Assembly (NCBI GenBank): GCA_963713465.1
Contig: CAVQLZ010000019.1
Span: forward strand, 720,945-784,944
Length of the DNA: 64,000 nucleotides
Direction: 5' to 3'
Source: an uncultured Acidobacteriaceae bacterium
Lineage (GTDB): Bacteria; Acidobacteriota; Terriglobia; Terriglobales; Acidobacteriaceae
Under the pieces are notes generated by a model. The model had not been told where the DNA came from. It saw nothing but the letters and a program-made list of their open reading frames with translations, and searched no databases. Positions 3,311 through 63,781 of the stretch are shown in pieces; positions within the stretch are counted from its first letter, which is position 1, and each line of letters begins with the position of its first letter. Made by a program: the position numbers and the translations under genes.

Positions 3311-3347
3311 GGGTGCCCCATCCTAGCCTTCTTTTGGCTATGGTGGG
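3311..3347. repeat. hairpin + GGGTGCCC unit (family B)
   Basis: gggtgcccc-atcctagcc-ttctttt-ggctatggtggg. The same stem type occurs at 11714-11750. Confidence 0.7.
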
Positions 3348-3389
3348 AGACGGCGCTTGGCCCTTGGCGCTGGCTGCTCCCTCCTAAAA

Positions 3390-4018: not shown

Positions 4019-4122
4019 CAGCGCCGTAGGCGCGAAAGAGGAGAACCCAGCGTTTCAGCGCTGGGTAGGCGGGATAAAAAGAACCCGAGTCCCTTCAGGG
4101 ACGGCAGCAGGGCGTCCCTTAT

Positions 4123-4687: not shown

Positions 4688-5337
4688 CGGTTCGCCCGCT
4701 ATAGTTGACCGCTGCGAAGTCCGCCGCGGCGGATCGGTTGTCCGTTGTCGGATGCGGATAGTCGCAATGCTCGTCAGGCCTCGCGTGGACACAGTGCCGA
4801 AGGCACGACAGATGATAGCCCAGCGTTTCAACAAGGGCGCAGCAGCTTACGAACTTTGCGGCAAGATACTGCGAACAAATAACTTAGCTGCAAACCTTTG
4901 CGCGACAGATACTTAGCGGGCTCGTGAGACGAATCAGCAGGCAGCCCTGATGACAGCGAAAACCGGCTACCGACCGCGCCAACAATTTTTCAAAGAACGT
5001 CAACCACCGGACTACTCCGGAGCCATTGGACACACCAAGCCCAACCTATCAGCGTACCGTGTACCCGGTTTTCGTCAAGATTACGAGAGTAGGGGGTGGG
5101 GTAATTGGTCTTTGGTAACCAGGAAAGGCAGTTGTCAGTTGTCGGTTGTCAGTGCTCAGTTGTCAGTGCTCAGTAGCCGTTTACCAAACCTGATTCTCAT
5201 CGCAGACCATCACCGAGAACTGACAACTGTTTTTCAGCGCCGTAGGCGCGAAAGAGGAGAACCCAGCGTTTCAGCGCTGGGTAGGCGGGATAAAAAGAAC
5301 CCGAGTCCCTTCAGGGACGGCACATGTCGTCCCTTAT

Positions 5338-5902: not shown

Positions 5903-6100
5903 CGGTTCGCCCGCTATAGTTGACCGCTGCGAAGTCCGCCGCGGCGGATCGGTTGTCCGTTGTCGGATGCGGATAGTCGCAATGCTCGTCAGGCCTCGCG
6001 TGGACACAGTGCCGAAGGCACGACAGATGATAGCCCAGCGTTTCAACGCTGGGTACGCGTGATAAAAGAAGCCGAGTCCCTTCAGGGACGGCACAGCCCT

Positions 6101-9369: not shown

Positions 9370-9800
9370 TAAATCGCGGACGAACCGCAGGGCTCTCGGC
9401 TGCGCTCGGGATGACAAGCAAGAAAAACGCTCGCGATGACAAGCAAGAAAGCACGAGCTGACAACCGGAGCTCGGTGCGCAATCGAAAAGGGCGAAAACC
9501 CCGCTCAAGCGTTCGCTGTCGAGCGCCGGGCGAACAGCAGGTCCCTCCACTCCGTCCGCCGCGGCGGACTCCGGTCGGGATGACAATCTTCGAGTTCGCG
9601 CGGCGTTTGGGAGCAGGCCAGCATCGGCTTGCTGCGGGCGAACCGCAGATCCCTCCACTCCGCGCCCGCCGACTCGTCCGCCGCGGCGGACGAGTCGGAA
9701 AAGCACGCGCGGGCGCTCCGGTCGGGATGACAATCAAGAAAAAACGGGATGACAACCAAGACAGGCGCGAAAATCCCCGCTCAAGCTTCGCTTGAACGGG
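9370..9800. repeat. dense cluster of family C repeat units (at least 3 units ending in gggatgacaa, plus fragments)
   Basis: Units gcgaac(c/a)gcag(g/a)(g/t)c(c/t)ctc...cgggatgacaa end at about 9417, 9587 and 9733. The last unit contains the hairpin ccgactcgtccgcc-gcggcggacgagtcgg. Confidence 0.8.
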
Positions 9801-9858
9801 GCACCCGGCACCCGGACATCTCACATGCCCGGACTATCTCACGTCACCCCGGACAACT

Positions 9859-11678: not shown

Positions 11679-11849
11679 GATGAGTGGGACACCCGTCGAG
11701 ACCGGATTCGTCTCCCATCCTAGCCAAAAGAAAGCTAGGATGGGGCACCCACGTCGTAGCCGCAGACCCACTCATCCCAAACGATGGGATGGGTGGGGCA
11801 CCCGCACCATCCCAGGTTAGCCCAAAAGATGGGCGAACCTGGGGCACCC
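11679..11849. repeat. tandem array of hairpin + GGGGCACCC units (family B)
   Basis: Units at 11679-11694 (partial), 11714-11750, 11767-11803 and 11811-11849. They use three different stems, and each unit ends in gg(g/a)caccc. Confidence 0.8.
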
Positions 11850-37712: not shown

Positions 37713-39244
37713 ACAGAGGAATTGTGCCCCAGGTTCGCCTCGACAGGGTGCCCCAGGTTCACGCCCATCTTTCGGGCGCTAACCTGTGCCGTACTGCAAC
37801 TATCGCGATAATTTGCGGGCTTATGACAGCCTGCACCGTCGGGCCGAACTATCAGCGTCCGCCTGCGCCCGCGCCCGAGGCGTACAAGACGCAAGCCCCG
37901 TGGCGCGTGGCTGCTCCCAAGGATTCTTTGCCCAAAGGCGCGTGGTGGGAGGTCTTCAACGACACCGAGCTGAACGCCTATGAGCAGCAGTTGCTCGCGG
38001 CGAACCAGTCGCTGCTCGCTGCCAAAGACCGGCTGGAAGAGGCGCGATCGCTCGCGCGCGTGGCCACCGCGGCATTTTTTCCGCAGGCCAACGTCGATCC
38101 CAGCGCATCCCGCAACCGATACTCTGCCAATCGCCCGGAAGTGATCACACTGAACACCGGATCGCTCACGCAGAGCACCTACGAGGTTCCGTTCATCATG
38201 AACTGGGAGCCGGACCTGTTTGGCCGCTATCGCCGCAATCTGGAGGCGTCGAATGCAAACCTGCAAGGCACTGCCGCCGACCTGTACAACGTTAATCTGG
38301 TTTTGACCGCGGAGCTTGCCGCCGACTACTTCAGTCTTCGTGAGCTCGATGCCGAGACGCAAGTCGTAAAGGAGTCGGTCGAGATTCAGCAGAGAGGATT
38401 GCAGCTCGTCGAGTATCGGCACAACGGGGGCGTGGCTTCGGGATTGGACCTCGCGCAGCAGCAAACGCTGCTCGACTCAACTACGGCGCAGCTCTATCTG
38501 GTGCAGCAGCAGCGCGACCAGTTTGAGCATGCCATCGCGGTGCTGACGGGCAATCCGGCTTCGACCTTTAGTGTGCCGGTGCGGCCGTTGACGCTGACGC
38601 CGGTTCCGGTGCCGCTTGGGGTGCCTTCGGATTTGCTGGAGCGGCGTCCCGACATCGCTACCGCCGAGCGGCAGATGGCTTACGAAAACGCACTGGTGGG
38701 AGTGGCCAAATCTGCTTTCTATCCCCAGCTAACGCTCTCCGGAGCGGGCGGCTTTCAGAGCACCGACATCAATAATCTGATCAGCGCGCCGACCGCGATA
38801 TGGTCGCTGGGCGCCGACTTGCTCGAACCTGTCGTCAACGGCGGCCGCAACCGTGCCAACCTGGCTTACACGAGACACGTGTACGACGAGAGTGTGGCCA
38901 ACTACCGCGAAGCGGTACTGACGGCGTTTCAGCAAGTGGAAGACGGCCTTTCCGGTCTGAACGAGCTATCGCAGGCGCAGACCACGCAAAACGCCGCCGT
39001 ATCCGATGCGCGCCGCGCACTGGAGATCGCCAACAATCGCTATGTCGGCGGCGTGACCAGCTTCCTCGATGTGGTCACCGCCCAAAGCGTCTTGCTGACG
39101 AATCAACGTCTGGCCACGCAACTGATGGGACAGCAAATGGTGACCGAAGTCGCGCTCATCAAGGCCCTCGGTGGAGGCTGGGACGCGTCGCAGATCCAGA
39201 ACCAGCAAGTGCATCCGCGCGCGATCCAGGCGGTGCAGCAGTAG
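37709..39244 (+). CDS. efflux outer-membrane factor lipoprotein (NodT family)
   Basis: Lipobox LMTAC followed by VGPNYQRP. Two TolC-like repeats. ATGA overlap with the adaptor stop. Confidence 0.9.
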   Translation: MNRGIVPQVRLDRVPQVHAHLSGANLCRTATIAIICGLMTACTVGPNYQRPPAPAPEAYKTQAPWRVAAPKDSLPKGAWWEVFNDTELNAYEQQLLAANQSLLAAKDRLEEARSLARVATAAFFPQANVDPSASRNRYSANRPEVITLNTGSLTQSTYEVPFIMNWEPDLFGRYRRNLEASNANLQGTAADLYNVNLVLTAELAADYFSLRELDAETQVVKESVEIQQRGLQLVEYRHNGGVASGLDLAQQQTLLDSTTAQLYLVQQQRDQFEHAIAVLTGNPASTFSVPVRPLTLTPVPVPLGVPSDLLERRPDIATAERQMAYENALVGVAKSAFYPQLTLSGAGGFQSTDINNLISAPTAIWSLGADLLEPVVNGGRNRANLAYTRHVYDESVANYREAVLTAFQQVEDGLSGLNELSQAQTTQNAAVSDARRALEIANNRYVGGVTSFLDVVTAQSVLLTNQRLATQLMGQQMVTEVALIKALGGGWDASQIQNQQVHPRAIQAVQQ

Positions 39245-43408: not shown

Positions 43409-43813
43409 AGTTCACTCCAGGGAAAAAATTTGGAGGGCCATGCCAGGCAGCAGTTTTGCCCTCGAAAGTGACTCTAGAGAGCCATCTACTCTGGCTCAAT
43501 GAGGGATAAGGCTTAGTTGCGAAGATTTGCGGTACTCTGCAGATTCAATGGGTTGAGAGACTACATAGTTCCATATCGCCTGCTATCAACCGGTTAGAGC
43601 ACCTGGTGAGAGACTTCTTCTTGCCTCCTGAATTTCACTTAGTACTTCTTACTGACTAGCTTCTAAGGAAACAAGGAATTTCATCGTTGGCACCGCGGAA
43701 AGATCAGCCACAGCAACCCTGTATCGCTGTCCAATTCAAGATAGCTTTGAACCTTGCCGAGTCGAGACCCTGCGGTCCGGAGACGCAACGCCGCGAACCG
43801 TTACAATAAACTC

Positions 43814-44854
43814 ATGATTCGCTCGATTGTGTTTCCTCGCGTCCTCGGACGATCGCTGGACGACTTACAGCCTGCGCTGGAGTTGTTTCGCGCCCTGGGA
43901 TTCGCGCCGGGCAACGAGTGGCATGAGGGCGGTAATCACGGGGTCGAGATGCTTGCGCCCGCCGGTGGTATTGAGTTTATCGCCGCCCCCGACGCGCCCA
44001 GCGTGGACGCGATGGTGGAAGTTTCCGATGCGGATGCGGCCTACGAGATCGTGAAGAAGCTGGATCCAAGGCCGCCGCCAAAATCAGGCGACAGGGATGG
44101 GGCAATCGACAACCCACTCATCACAAAACCGCGGATGAGTGGGGCACCCGGAGTCAAGATTACCAAGGAGATTGCTGATACTCCGTATGGTGCGCGGCTG
44201 TTTGAAGTTGAGGCCGGCGGACTGCGTATCGGCTTTCTCACCTATGCAAAAGAATCCGACGCTGGCGGCCTGGAAGGAAAACTTGATGCCAGCGGGAAGA
44301 GGTTCGCATTGGTCGTGAGCCGCTTTAATTCCTTCATCACCGAGCGCCTGCTGGATGGCGCGTTGCGGGCGCTGCGGCAGTGCGGAGCAAAAGCCGACGA
44401 CATTGAGGTTGCCCACGTGCCGGGAGCGTTCGAAATTCCTGCCGCCGCTCGGCAGCTCGCCGCAACCGGAAGCTACGACGCGATCGTCTGCATCGGATGC
44501 CTGCTGCGCGGCGACACCTTGCATTACGAAGTCATTGCCAACGAAGTCACGCGCGGCGTGGGACAGTCGGCGCAGGAGACCGGAGTACCGCACGCCTTTG
44601 GCGTTCTCACCTGCGACACGCTGGAACAGGCGATTGATCGCGCCGGGCTGAAGGCCGGCAACAAAGGATACGAGGCCGGATTGGCGGCGGTGGAGATGGC
44701 GTCGCTGCGAAAGGCACTTCTGAAAAAGAAGCGTTCGAGCAGGACGAGGCGAACCGCAGATCCCTCGGCTCCGTCCGCCAAGGCGAACTCCGCTCGGGAT
44801 GACAAATCGCCTGACGCAACGCCAACGGCGCACGCGACGGATGGCAGCCGATGA
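43814..44854 (+). CDS. ribH: VOC(glyoxalase-like)-domain / 6,7-dimethyl-8-ribityllumazine synthase fusion ORF
   Basis: The C-terminal 150 or so aa are clear RibH (RFALVVSRFNSFITERLLDGA...HVPGAFEIP...HYEVIANEV...GVLT...QAIDRAG.KAGNKG.EA). The N-terminal 150 or so aa resemble a VOC fold. No canonical start codon precedes the RibH part. Confidence 0.75.
   Translation: MIRSIVFPRVLGRSLDDLQPALELFRALGFAPGNEWHEGGNHGVEMLAPAGGIEFIAAPDAPSVDAMVEVSDADAAYEIVKKLDPRPPPKSGDRDGAIDNPLITKPRMSGAPGVKITKEIADTPYGARLFEVEAGGLRIGFLTYAKESDAGGLEGKLDASGKRFALVVSRFNSFITERLLDGALRALRQCGAKADDIEVAHVPGAFEIPAAARQLAATGSYDAIVCIGCLLRGDTLHYEVIANEVTRGVGQSAQETGVPHAFGVLTCDTLEQAIDRAGLKAGNKGYEAGLAAVEMASLRKALLKKKRSSRTRRTADPSAPSAKANSARDDKSPDATPTAHATDGSR
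44113..44149. repeat. family B hairpin + GGGGCACCC unit inside the VOC-RibH ORF
   Basis: cccactcatc-acaaaaccgcg-gatgagtggggcaccc, translated in frame as NPLITKPRMSGAP. Confidence 0.7.
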
Positions 44855-61494: not shown

Positions 61495-61638
61495 GGGAAC
61501 TCCAGGGGACAGCCCTCGCCAGCGGTGAGGAATTTCGACTTCAACACCCCACAGCCAATTGCTGCATGCTTGCTGTCAACGACTACTGCTTTAGTGTGAT
61601 TCTAACCTGTCCCGCGCAAGCGCGCAAAATGGCCGCAA

Positions 61639-63105
61639 GTGGTCGGTATAATCGTCGTTGTGGCGACCTACCATGTTCAAAACTTCGGATGCCGCGCGAC
61701 CCAGGCCGACGGTGCGGCCATCGAGCGCCAGTTGCTCGAGCGCGGATTGCTGCGCGCCGAGGGCGCCAGCCAAGCCGAAGTCGTCGTCCTCAACACCTGC
61801 ACGGTAACGGCTTCGGCCGATCAGGACGCGCGGGCCGCAATACGCCGTATTCACCGCGAAAATCCTGGGGCGCAGATACTGGTAACGGGCTGCTACGCGC
61901 AGCGCGCGCCGGAAGAATTGTCGGCAATTCCGGGTGTGAGCCTGGTAATCGGAAACTCTCACAAGCATCGCTTGGCGGACTATGTTGGGCCTTTCGCGGA
62001 GAAATCCGCGCGCCCTACTCATCCCCAGTCCTGGGTCGGGTGCCCCACTCATCCGCGGGTTTCGGATGAGTGGGAGATCGTTATCAGTCCAGAAACTCCA
62101 GGTAATAATTTTGTTCCGCTGGCGCAACTTGGCGCACCTACGGAGTCGAAAGTCATCGTCGGTGACATCTTCGCCCACACCGAACTCACCGCTGCGCCGG
62201 TCTTCGACGGCGACTCGTTGGAGAAGACGCGACCCAATCTGAAGGTGCAGGATGGCTGCAATAATCGTTGCTCGTTCTGCATCATCCCGTACGTGCGCGG
62301 GCGTAGCCGCTCGCTCAAGCTGGACGAAGTAATTCGCGAAGTGGGCGCGCTGGTCGCAAGCGGCTACCGCGAGATCGTGCTGTCGGGAATAAATCTTGGC
62401 CGCTGGGGACGCGAGCTACAGCCGCAGATGCGGTTTGCCGATATGCTGCGCGCCATCCTAGAGCGCACGGCGATCGAGAAGCTGCGCATCAGCTCGGTCG
62501 AGCCCATGGACTGGTCGAACGAACTGATCGAGTTGGTGGCGTCGTCGCCGCGAATCTGCAAGCACGCGCACGTGCCGCTGCAATCGGGCAGCGACCGCAT
62601 TTTGCGCAAGATGCACCGCAAGTATCGCCCGTGGCACTACGCCGATCGCATCGAGCGCATCCGCCGCGCCATGCCGGACGCGGCGATTGGCGCAGATGTG
62701 ATGGTCGGTTTCCCCGGCGAGACCGACGACGACTTCGACGAGACGCGCGCCCTGATCGAACGCCTGCCATTCACGTATCTGCACGTCTTCACATATTCGT
62801 CGCGTCCGGGCACGCCGTCAGCGGCGATGCCCGACCAAGTGCCAGTGCAAGTCGCGCGCGAACGCAATCGCATCCTCCGCGAGTTGGCGTCGCAGAAGAA
62901 GCGCGCGTTCATGGAATCGTTCGTCGGGCGCGAAGTGGAAGCCATCACGTTGACGCACTTCGACGGCGAGTACACCGAAGCACTGACGGACAACTACCTG
63001 AAGTTGCGCGTGCGCGGGGAGCGCGCGGCAAATCACTCGTTCCGAAGCAGCGTTCATGCGGTTGCAGGCGACGCTCTGATCGGCGCTGCACGAGGTTTGT
63101 TGTAG
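61639..63105 (+). CDS. mtaB: tRNA methylthiotransferase, MtaB-like radical SAM enzyme
   Basis: FGCRATQADG N-terminal MTTase domain, GCNNRCSFCIIPYVRG radical-SAM motif and HVPLQSGSDRILRKM. Start is GTG 61639 or GTG 61660. Confidence 0.8.
   Translation: MVGIIVVVATYHVQNFGCRATQADGAAIERQLLERGLLRAEGASQAEVVVLNTCTVTASADQDARAAIRRIHRENPGAQILVTGCYAQRAPEELSAIPGVSLVIGNSHKHRLADYVGPFAEKSARPTHPQSWVGCPTHPRVSDEWEIVISPETPGNNFVPLAQLGAPTESKVIVGDIFAHTELTAAPVFDGDSLEKTRPNLKVQDGCNNRCSFCIIPYVRGRSRSLKLDEVIREVGALVASGYREIVLSGINLGRWGRELQPQMRFADMLRAILERTAIEKLRISSVEPMDWSNELIELVASSPRICKHAHVPLQSGSDRILRKMHRKYRPWHYADRIERIRRAMPDAAIGADVMVGFPGETDDDFDETRALIERLPFTYLHVFTYSSRPGTPSAAMPDQVPVQVARERNRILRELASQKKRAFMESFVGREVEAITLTHFDGEYTEALTDNYLKLRVRGERAANHSFRSSVHAVAGDALIGAARGLL
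62014..62073. repeat. family B hairpin units inserted in frame inside mtaB
   Basis: cctactcatcc-ccagtcctggg-tcgggtgcccc-actcatccg-cgggttt-cggatgagtggg, translated PTHPQSWVGCPTHPRVSDEWE. Confidence 0.7.
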
Positions 63106-63178
63106 CTTTGGCTACCGTAGGTTTCGGCAATCCCATGCTATACTTTTCGCAGACTAGCAGTTAGCAGCGGAGGACTGT

Positions 63179-63781
63179 ATCGATAAACGTTTTATCCGCA
63201 CGAATGAGCGTATTCGTGCCCGCGAAATTCGCGTCATCGACGACGAAGGCAACCAGCTTGGCATCATGCCGCCCTTCGAAGCGCTCAAAAAAGCCCGCGA
63301 AAAAAGCCTCGACCTGGTAGAAGTTTCTCCCACCGCGCAGCCGCCGGTTTGCCGCATCATGGATTACGGCAAATACCTGTACCAGGCGGAAAAGCGCGAG
63401 CGCGAAGCCAAGAAGCACCAGCACCAGATCACGGTCAAGGAAGTGAAGTTCCGCATCAACGTGGACGATCACGACTACGAGACCAAGAAGAACCACGTGC
63501 TGCGCTTCCTCGACGAAGGCGACAAGGTGAAGGCCACCATCTTCTTCCGCGGCCGCGAAATGACGCGCCAGGGGCTGGGCCGCGAGATCCTCGACCGGCT
63601 GATCAAAGACCTGGGCGACAAGGCGATCGTGGAGTTCCGTCCGCGGCAGGAAGGCAATACGCTGCACCTGATCCTGGCGCCTCCGAAGGCGCAGACGCCA
63701 GCCAAGCCGCCAAAGCCGCCGCAGCAGGGCACGCCGCAAGCGCAGCCACAGCGTCCGCCCGCGCCACAACAGCAACAGTAA
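63179..63781 (+). CDS. infC: translation initiation factor IF-3 with a non-canonical (ATC) start and a Pro/Gln-rich tail
   Basis: The conserved N-terminus IDKRFIRTNERIRAREIRVIDDEGNQLG lies upstream of the first ATG (63266). The frame is open only from 63158 and contains no ATG/GTG/TTG there. GGAGG at 63169-63173 lies 5 nt before ATC 63179. Confidence 0.85.
   Translation: MDKRFIRTNERIRAREIRVIDDEGNQLGIMPPFEALKKAREKSLDLVEVSPTAQPPVCRIMDYGKYLYQAEKREREAKKHQHQITVKEVKFRINVDDHDYETKKNHVLRFLDEGDKVKATIFFRGREMTRQGLGREILDRLIKDLGDKAIVEFRPRQEGNTLHLILAPPKAQTPAKPPKPPQQGTPQAQPQRPPAPQQQQ

Follow-up and report, generated by a model that had tools for sequence, protein, structure and literature searches.

A palindromic repeat of probable REP type inserted in frame in the MtaB connector of an uncultured Acidobacteriaceae bacterium

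Repetitive extragenic palindromic (REP) sequences tagged with GTAG or CGTC were surveyed by Di Nocera et al. (2013; PMC3733652), who found in-frame intragenic copies of about 20-30 amino acids (aa) in genes for DNA repair, DNA ligase, tRNA synthetases and tRNA modification, and suggested that intragenic REPs in flexible linkers or loops are neutral. Quentin et al. (2018; PMC6006769) described REPs located in frame inside the transposase gene for subclass 2.4 of tnpA_REP; they list Acidobacteria chiefly in class 3, where the foot is CnGA. The Rickettsia palindromic elements (RPE; PMC1779305) are the classic palindromic repeats within protein-coding genes, e.g., PheT. Here, a palindromic unit of 37 nucleotides (nt) is described within the mtaB gene of an uncultured Acidobacteriaceae bacterium, located in a stretch of 64,000 nt of contig CAVQLZ010000019.1, hereafter called the window. 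Taken as a whole, the locus is probably best explained by a REP-type unit from a family linked to REP-associated tyrosine transposases (RAYT), which was inserted as a second, nested copy into a disordered linker of MtaB and is tolerated there.

The open reading frame (ORF) of mtaB is uninterrupted and its translation includes ...ARPTHPQSWVGCPTHPRVSDEWE... / ...ARPTHPQSWVGCPTHPRVSDEWEIVIS...; reading and translating the DNA bore out both this and the sequence which the original prediction had quoted for 62014-62073. The gene, its domains and the parts of the inserted segment are located in the window as follows.

61639..63105, + strand: mtaB ORF, 488 aa, intact (ORF translation, profile and alignment evidence)
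61669..61953, + strand: methylthiotransferase (MTTase) N-terminal domain (UPF0004, aa 11-105; domain match), aligning with residues 22-120 of MiaB 7MJZ
61993..62109, + strand: whole extra connector segment (aa 119-157), missing from orthologues with the basal connector of 39-42 aa, predicted to be disordered
62007..62036, + strand: older, decayed REP unit with degenerate foot CGCGCGCC, 5' arm CTACTCATCC and loop CCAGTCCTGG (direct and inverted repeats, alignment of relatives)
62035..62064, + strand: 30 nt forming ten codons (VGCPTHPRVS), present in the window and in P0078, missing from P0002/L087 (alignment)
62038..62074, + strand: perfect 37-nt unit, foot first, GGGTGCCCC ACTCATCCG CGGGTTT CGGATGAGTGGG (tag, inverted-repeat, length and folding analyses)
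62038..62046, + strand: foot or tag GGGTGCCCC, the reverse complement of GGGGCACCC (tag scan)
62044..62055, + strand: 5' stem arm CCCACTCATCCG, translated P-T-H-P (inverted-repeat search)
62063..62074, + strand: 3' stem arm CGGATGAGTGGG, translated S-D-E-W (inverted-repeat search)
62075..62109, + strand: variable tail of 11-12 aa, EIVISPETPGNN, present together with the unit in most carrier orthologues
62257..62280, + strand: radical-SAM CxxxCxxC motif CNNRCSFC, at the position given in the original prediction

The protein was identified as MtaB by the equivalog TIGR01579 (425.4 bits, cut-off 357.05). Pfam assigns UPF0004 to aa 11-105 and Radical_SAM to aa 202-372, and the six cluster cysteines (C18, C54 and C85 in the N-domain, C207, C211 and C214 in CxxxCxxC) are invariant in an alignment of 65 relatives. 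At the C-terminus the Pfam TRAM domain is unmatched, and the AlphaFold2 model is rich in beta structure at aa 432-484. The ORF opens at GTG 61639; a GTG some 21 nt downstream, at about 61660, may be the true start, since the consensus of the orthologues begins with VATYHV. MtaB is a conserved tRNA-modification enzyme which is not known to be generally essential, and the term "essential-type" applied to its gene was thus too strong.

Among the 120 best MtaB homologues (Candidatus Koribacter or Korobacteraceae-type, 75-88% identical) the protein length ranges from 433 to 544 aa, and the variation lies mostly in the connector following GNSHKH. When one genome per species is compared, the connector GNSHKH...DIFA comprises 39-42 aa in most Terriglobia, in contrast to 75 aa in the window, and GCPTHPR[VF]SDEW is carried only by L001, L002, and L004. 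The extra segment is missing from most orthologues, including every distant one. It is thus an insertion foreign to MtaB, located where the MTTase N-domain is connected with the radical-SAM domain, as had been proposed from its appearance in a non-conserved linker; the alignment of orthologues did not reveal it in distant MtaB proteins outside the repeat family, where its conservation would have contradicted the proposal. MiaB 7MJZ can be aligned with the query over the N-domain (13-108) and over the radical-SAM core (202-413); its connector has 45 aa and that of the MtaB in the window 93 aa. AlphaFold2 predicts no secondary structure and a local confidence (pLDDT) below 50 for aa 121-126 and 128-156, which correspond to the insert; confidence is low also at aa 175-225, around the cluster-binding loop, and the model is informative on the disorder of the insert alone.

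The unit itself is a perfect REP-type repeat with a stem of 12 bp and a loop of 7 nt, its two arms (62044-62055 and 62063-62074) being 100% complementary over 12 nt. RNA folding yields -22.7 kcal/mol for the unit and -47.3 kcal/mol (z = -3.6) for the surrounding region of 111 nt, so that the in-frame segment adds a strong hairpin as well as a peptide, as predicted. Upstream, a partial direct copy at 62007-62024 is 83% identical to 62037-62054 and belongs to the decayed unit, which now uses the 3' arm 62064-62074 jointly with the perfect one. The nested arrangement becomes apparent in the closest relative (P0002/L087, 88% identity), which has a single degenerate unit (...ACC ACT CAT CCC CAG TCT TGG GAT GAG TTG...). 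The layout in the window is identical except for 30 additional nt (62035-62064) between TGG and GAT; a perfect unit is therefore nested in an older one, with the 3' arm common to both. P0078 is arranged like the window, P0004 and P0003 of the same clade have a single unit, and the arrangement seen in the window recurs in the independent assemblies P0078, L001, L002, L004, L167, and L203.

No convincing target-site duplication was detected around the unit, as the sequence F(V/L)(Q/P)L on either side of it in L004 and P0046 matches at only 7 of 12 nt of DNA. A derivation of the 11-12 aa tail from the longer composite repeats beside RAYT genes could not be demonstrated. The region 61500-63300 contains no terminator-like hairpin followed by a T-run, and the unit is thus no intrinsic terminator. 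Rfam models reach best scores of only 10-12 bits (E 6-9) in 61900-62200, and none overlaps the unit in the scan of the whole window. A weak sigma-70-like match (TTATCA-17-AATAAT, 9/12) was observed in the AT-richer tail of the insert at 62081-62109 (+ strand); with one match found and 0.4 expected, it probably arose by chance.

Within the window, the tag GGGGCACCC occurs eight times where 0.56 occurrences are expected, a number which none of 100 shuffled sequences reached. Each of the eight tags is preceded by a hairpin, the last bases of which are the GGGG of the tag, and the units fall into at least three stem types. The original prediction had connected the segment in mtaB with two further units, one at 11767-11803, rightly taken as intergenic, and one at 44113-44149 within a coding sequence. 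Tag and hairpin architecture are common to all of them and place them in one family; the tags are of one type, but not of one orientation, as the mtaB unit is inverted relative to the other two and its tag is the reverse complement GGGTGCCCC, which precedes the hairpin. The remaining units of the window are listed below.

3311..3348, + strand: family unit with stem CCCACCATAGCC / GGCTAGGATGGGG, at a gene boundary
9773..9806, - strand: family unit with stem CCCCGCTCAAGC / GCTTGAACGGGG
11717..11849, - strand: intergenic cluster of three units, foot first on the minus strand, with tags at 11742, 11795, and 11841
11767-11803, - strand: middle unit of this cluster, CCCACTCATCC stem type
37746..37790, + strand: family unit with stem AGGTTAGCGCCC / GGGCGTGAACCT, at a gene boundary
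about 44064..44108, - strand: decayed generic unit in the VOC-RibH ORF, translated DPRPPPKSGDRDGAI, where orthologues have PTLSPKSGDKDGAP
44113..44149, - strand: CCCACTCATC-type unit in frame in the VOC domain of ORF 43754-44854, translated NPLITKPRMSGAPG

The family extends far beyond the window. In 1.45 Mb of Terriglobia loci, 30 exact tags with the same architecture were found, and a scan of metagenome contigs with the 17-mer GGGTGCCCCACTCATCC gave at least 143 matches in at least 120 loci. The matches listed comprise at least 86 complete units in distinct flanks, with either orientation and each of the four open frames represented, and only two of these matches lie in mtaB. Most of the listed copies are extragenic, roughly 1 in 7 being located in frame within verified genes. 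The length is exactly 37 nt in 94 of 96 complete units (all loci listed plus the window). The innermost stem pair, which was left unconstrained by the search pattern, covaries among the 86 units listed (61 G:C, 24 C:G, 1 mismatch). The conserved foot is GGGTGC, with GTGC next to the stem and a C at position -1 in 62 of these 86 units. At L126:1201-1243 the hairpin is framed by two tags (GGGTGCCCC-hairpin-GGGGCACCC), which makes this "double-foot" unit fully palindromic. At the peptide level, a concatenated query of the four frames returned no candidates and the insert of 30 aa no match at E <= 0.001 among 1.84 billion representatives, which is uninformative with so short a query.

About 20 of the 120 element-bearing loci listed encode one conserved protein, which matches Y1_Tnp and the NCBIfam RAYT equivalog NF047646 (108 bits, cut-off 80). 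In L147, inverted units at 1329-1375 and 2055-2101 lie on either side of the RAYT gene, the arrangement known as a REPtron, and the gene contains one further unit. Size, hairpin, dispersion, and REPtron, the latter seen in related metagenomic contigs and not in the window, agree with what defines REPs. As a part of the overall explanation, it is therefore considered likely that the family is of REP type, dispersed in Korobacteraceae and Terriglobia and paired with a RAYT in related genomes, and this enzyme would be the one that mobilises it, judging from these sequence associations.

The nucleotide identity of the unit does not follow the gene tree. Over its 36 aligned nt, the window shows 0-1 differences to L001, L002, and L004, and the unit of L001 is identical including the loop, whereas the whole mtaB genes of these three are only 76-81% identical to that of the window, with 38-53% of the four-fold sites changed. 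In the closest relative P0002/L087, in which only the old unit can be aligned, there are nine differences. Among ten genes, the codons of the unit for G-C-P-T-H show a pairwise difference of 0-0.2, as compared to 0.39 in 272 other columns with invariant residues. Carriers of the unit (30 of the 120 close orthologues) are scattered on the tree, and at least 19 gains or losses are required by Fitch parsimony. Two stem subtypes are present in mtaB, CATCCG..CGGATG (PTHPR[VF]SDEW) and CATCCCA..TGGGATG (PTHP[IF][FL]WDEW), both of them common elsewhere, and the sequence flanking the unit varies from one carrier clade to another, as between L004 and L002. Finally, the copies in L081, L084, and L085 are decaying in the 3' arm, and L088 has lost foot and 5' arm. 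Since the unit is nearly identical in diverged genes, its carriers are scattered, two subtypes exist and some copies decay, the pattern fits repeated gain, conversion, and decay rather than a conserved functional module.

A second in-frame case was correctly recognised in ORF 43754-44854, which encodes RibH fused to an N-terminal VOC/glyoxalase domain, a fusion general in Korobacteraceae with lengths of 279-424 aa. Removing a stretch of 29 aa in silico raises the score of Glyoxalase PF00903 from 13.7 to 28.8 bits, and insert-free homologues exist: P0146, P0196, P0229, P0231, and P0237 (5 of 120), apparently also P0218 and P0230. For P0229 and P0237, PF00903 and PF00885 are both precomputed. 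Most of the other homologues contain PTLSPK.GDKDGAP, often as two or three units in tandem; it represents the generic member of the family, in which GGGGCACCC is translated as DGAP. Depending on the lineage, one loop of the VOC domain thus holds from none to at least three tandem REP units, and a fresh unit stands beside a decayed one in VOC-RibH as it does in mtaB.

Further host genes were found in the metagenomic loci and checked by Pfam.

L185:3324-5921 and L099:8307-9926 / L112:3-1070: MutS2, in-frame unit at one common site N-terminal to MutS_V, on different contigs with the same frame GAPLIPSVGMSGT and diverged flanks
L208: MetRS, unit between the anticodon-binding domain and the C-terminal tRNA_bind domain
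L176: LigA, unit splitting the adenylation domain
L183: SpeE-like membrane protein, in-frame unit
L097:300-1121 (- strand), L147:1220-2083 (+ strand), and L199:1-822 (+ strand): RAYT genes with 1-3 own units in frame between the HuH and Tyr motifs

The RAYT gene of L097 has three tandem units with an array period of about 75 nt. In MutS2, site and frame of the unit agree between contigs, which parallels the situation in mtaB. All four stop-free frames are used, namely GCPTHP..SDEW in MtaB, GAPLIP..GMSG in MutS2 and MetRS, PTHPK.ADEWGT in RAYT, and PLIRKPRMSGAP in the SpeE-like protein and VOC-RibH. The other two frames contain a TGA derived from GGATGAGT and were found in none of the verified genes. 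A bias of the unit length toward multiples of three, which had been put forward as a test, is uninformative, since intact genes can show nothing else; with 37 nt the unit is no multiple of three, and the in-frame copies are therefore survivors and do not reflect a property of the element. The view that the family inserts into inter-domain linkers holds for the MtaB connector, but the sites in VOC and LigA are loops within a domain. Likewise, of the suggestion that insertion is tolerated or selected for, tolerance is supported and selection is not, as most copies are extragenic, and in many close relatives of MtaB the unit is either missing or in decay.

A second repeat family, TGTCATC[AC]CGAG ... 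GAGGGATCTGC, was observed in the window near 44793 (- strand) and 9405 (- strand) as well as in L209:1292-1564 and L210:1292-1522. It occurs in frame in the connector of other Koribacter-like mtaB genes, downstream of LAQIG, as ..CHHE..EGSAF.., in P0015, P0026, P0027, P0032, P0072, P0077, P0113, and P0117, with P0077 and P0027 having both families, and a copy overlaps the C-terminal tail of ORF 43754-44854. Apart from these repeats, Acido-Lenti-1 RNA (RF01687) has three matches on the minus strand at 4020-4065, 5236-5281, and 6008-6053, with scores of 41.3, 41.3, and 61.1 bits (gathering score 37) and a spacing of about 0.8-1.2 kb.

The sequence of events would then be the following. An early unit may have inserted into the connector that joins the MTTase and radical-SAM domains at the surface of the protein, and in the lineage of the window a second, still perfect unit would have been added inside the remnant of the first. 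This addition would most likely have occurred by single-strand transposition of the RAYT type, targeting REP-like hairpins and feet, or else by gene conversion with a different copy as donor. Three circumstances would have let the unit survive in mtaB: the net gain in length is divisible by three, translation uses one of the four stop-free frames, and the linker around it is disordered, so that some 35 additional residues would leave the enzyme undisturbed. The mtaB unit is accordingly seen as most likely a tolerated passenger and not a functional module. Several points weigh against this explanation. Neither the 64 kb of the window nor the mtaB loci L001-L088 contain a RAYT gene, so that the link of a mobilising enzyme to the source genome is one we infer. 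The foot does not correspond to the canonical GT[AG]G or CGTC of REPs. In mtaB, all copies have one orientation, one frame, and nearly one site, a pattern also compatible with one old insertion and later loss, decay, and homogenisation, and their very high nucleotide identity could result from selection on the hairpin instead of recent arrival. The neighbour-joining tree, in which the connector was masked, has no support values and leaves recombination between alleles out of account. That the insert is neutral for the enzyme is suggested by its predicted disorder and its polymorphism, and by these only.

A rather unlikely alternative dispenses with transposition into mtaB: the unit would have spread among alleles by homologous recombination between strains and been doubled by slippage or unequal exchange of hairpin-bearing alleles. 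The identity of the units of the window and L001 down to the loop agrees with this, as do the patchy distribution on the tree and the sharing of the 3' arm between new and old unit, which is expected of unequal exchange. However, mtaB contains two stem subtypes which are both common elsewhere, the flanks of the unit differ between clades such as those of L004 and L002, and the same build-up beside an old unit took place in the unrelated VOC-RibH gene; recombination accounts for the spread of the unit and not for its origin. Still less credit is given to an exapted element, i.e., one ancient insertion kept by selection as an mRNA or single-stranded DNA hairpin or as a peptide containing Cys and His, the hairpin perhaps acting as a translational pause between the domains, in mRNA stability or as a protein-binding site. 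It would explain why the synonymous sites of foot and 5' arm hardly vary among species-level genomes, why all carriers agree in site, orientation, and frame, and why MutS2 shows the same site-conserved pattern, and the hairpin, with -22.7 kcal/mol, is a strong one. But 90 of the 120 close orthologues manage without the unit, the closest relative has a degenerate one only, and copies are decaying in L081, L084, L085, and L088; the peptide is predicted to be disordered and a terminator-like T-run is missing. At least 86 unrelated contexts preserve this nucleotide consensus, so that its conservation is a property of the family and not of mtaB.

Two other explanations have virtually no weight. If the peptide GCPTHPRVSDEW were ancestral to MtaB and its likeness to intergenic repeats coincidental or derived from the gene, its recurrence at one site in many orthologues would follow; this reading was rejected, since the peptide is missing from all more distant MtaB proteins, its conservation acts on nucleotides and not on codons, and the DNA unit occurs in at least 86 other, unrelated contexts in both orientations and four open frames. 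Repeats can indeed produce mis-joins in metagenome assemblies, but a repeat mis-assembled into mtaB would hardly recur in the six independent assemblies named above, and a pseudogene is at odds with the intact ORF, the score above the MtaB equivalog cut-off and the presence of all six cluster cysteines. The nested insertion of a tolerated REP-type unit thus remains the preferred explanation. A more far-reaching proposal, which is held to be speculative and on the doubtful side, is that REP units of Korobacteraceae preferentially land on REP remnants in coding sequences, that the surface loops at the MtaB, VOC-RibH, and MutS2 sites are growing landing pads and that the near-identity of the nucleotides across species is maintained by continued RAYT activity or conversion. 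If true, such pads would represent a transposase-driven route to the expansion of linkers and loops, possibly with a role for the in-gene hairpin.

The soil phylum concerned has been little studied, and the analysis documents in it a family of REP/RAYT type whose foot, GGGTGC, is unusual, and provides clean natural examples of a selfish 37-nt hairpin absorbed into proteins of essential pathways. It also explains peptides and spurious small ORFs which recur in Acidobacteriota (GCPTHP..SDEW, GAPLIP..GMSG, PTLSPK.GDKDGAP) as well as the wide spread in length of MtaB (433-544 aa) and VOC-RibH (279-424 aa). Its presence and absence in close relatives offers a test bed for the targeting of older REPs by REPs and for the neutrality of in-gene hairpins.

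Compared with described systems, the family is most similar to the REP/REPIN elements and RAYTs of Proteobacteria, with which it shares a short palindrome, a conserved foot adjoining the stem, dispersed, mostly extragenic and often clustered copies, stem subfamilies with compensatory pairs and, in related contigs, a RAYT flanked by inverted units. It differs in its foot, GGGTGC(CCC) instead of GT[AG]G or CGTC, in the long stem of 12 bp, the fixed length of 37 nt and the host phylum Acidobacteriota (Korobacteraceae). The window itself is without a RAYT, and MtaB and VOC-RibH are not among the hosts reported in the REP survey (PMC3733652). In the RAYTs of L097, L147, and L199, the in-frame position of the unit between the motifs HuH (HFHLL) and Tyr (YMHRNP) is exactly the arrangement described in PMC6006769. 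Bacterial miniature inverted-repeat transposable elements (Correia/NEMIS, Nezha, and others) are likewise small, non-autonomous and occasionally extend or fuse ORFs, but they measure 70-300 bp and have terminal inverted repeats and target-site duplications, the latter not convincingly present around the mtaB unit. With the RPEs, the family has in common that selfish palindromes lie between and inside genes, add a surface peptide to housekeeping enzymes and keep the frame, some RPE inserts being common to all species of a clade. RPEs are, however, 100-150 bp long, AT-rich, restricted to Rickettsiales and without a known dedicated transposase, whereas the unit described here has 37 nt, is GC-rich and RAYT-associated and shows no sequence similarity to them; it works like an RPE without being one. 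In-frame REPs and RPEs inside genes are already known from other bacteria (PMC3733652, PMC6006769, PMC1779305) and the principle is unchanged. Modestly new are the GGGTGC foot and the fixed 37-nt unit in Acidobacteriota, the recurrence of two host sites (MtaB connector, VOC-RibH loop), the enlargement of inserts by units added beside old remnants and the near-perfect nucleotide identity of in-gene copies across species.

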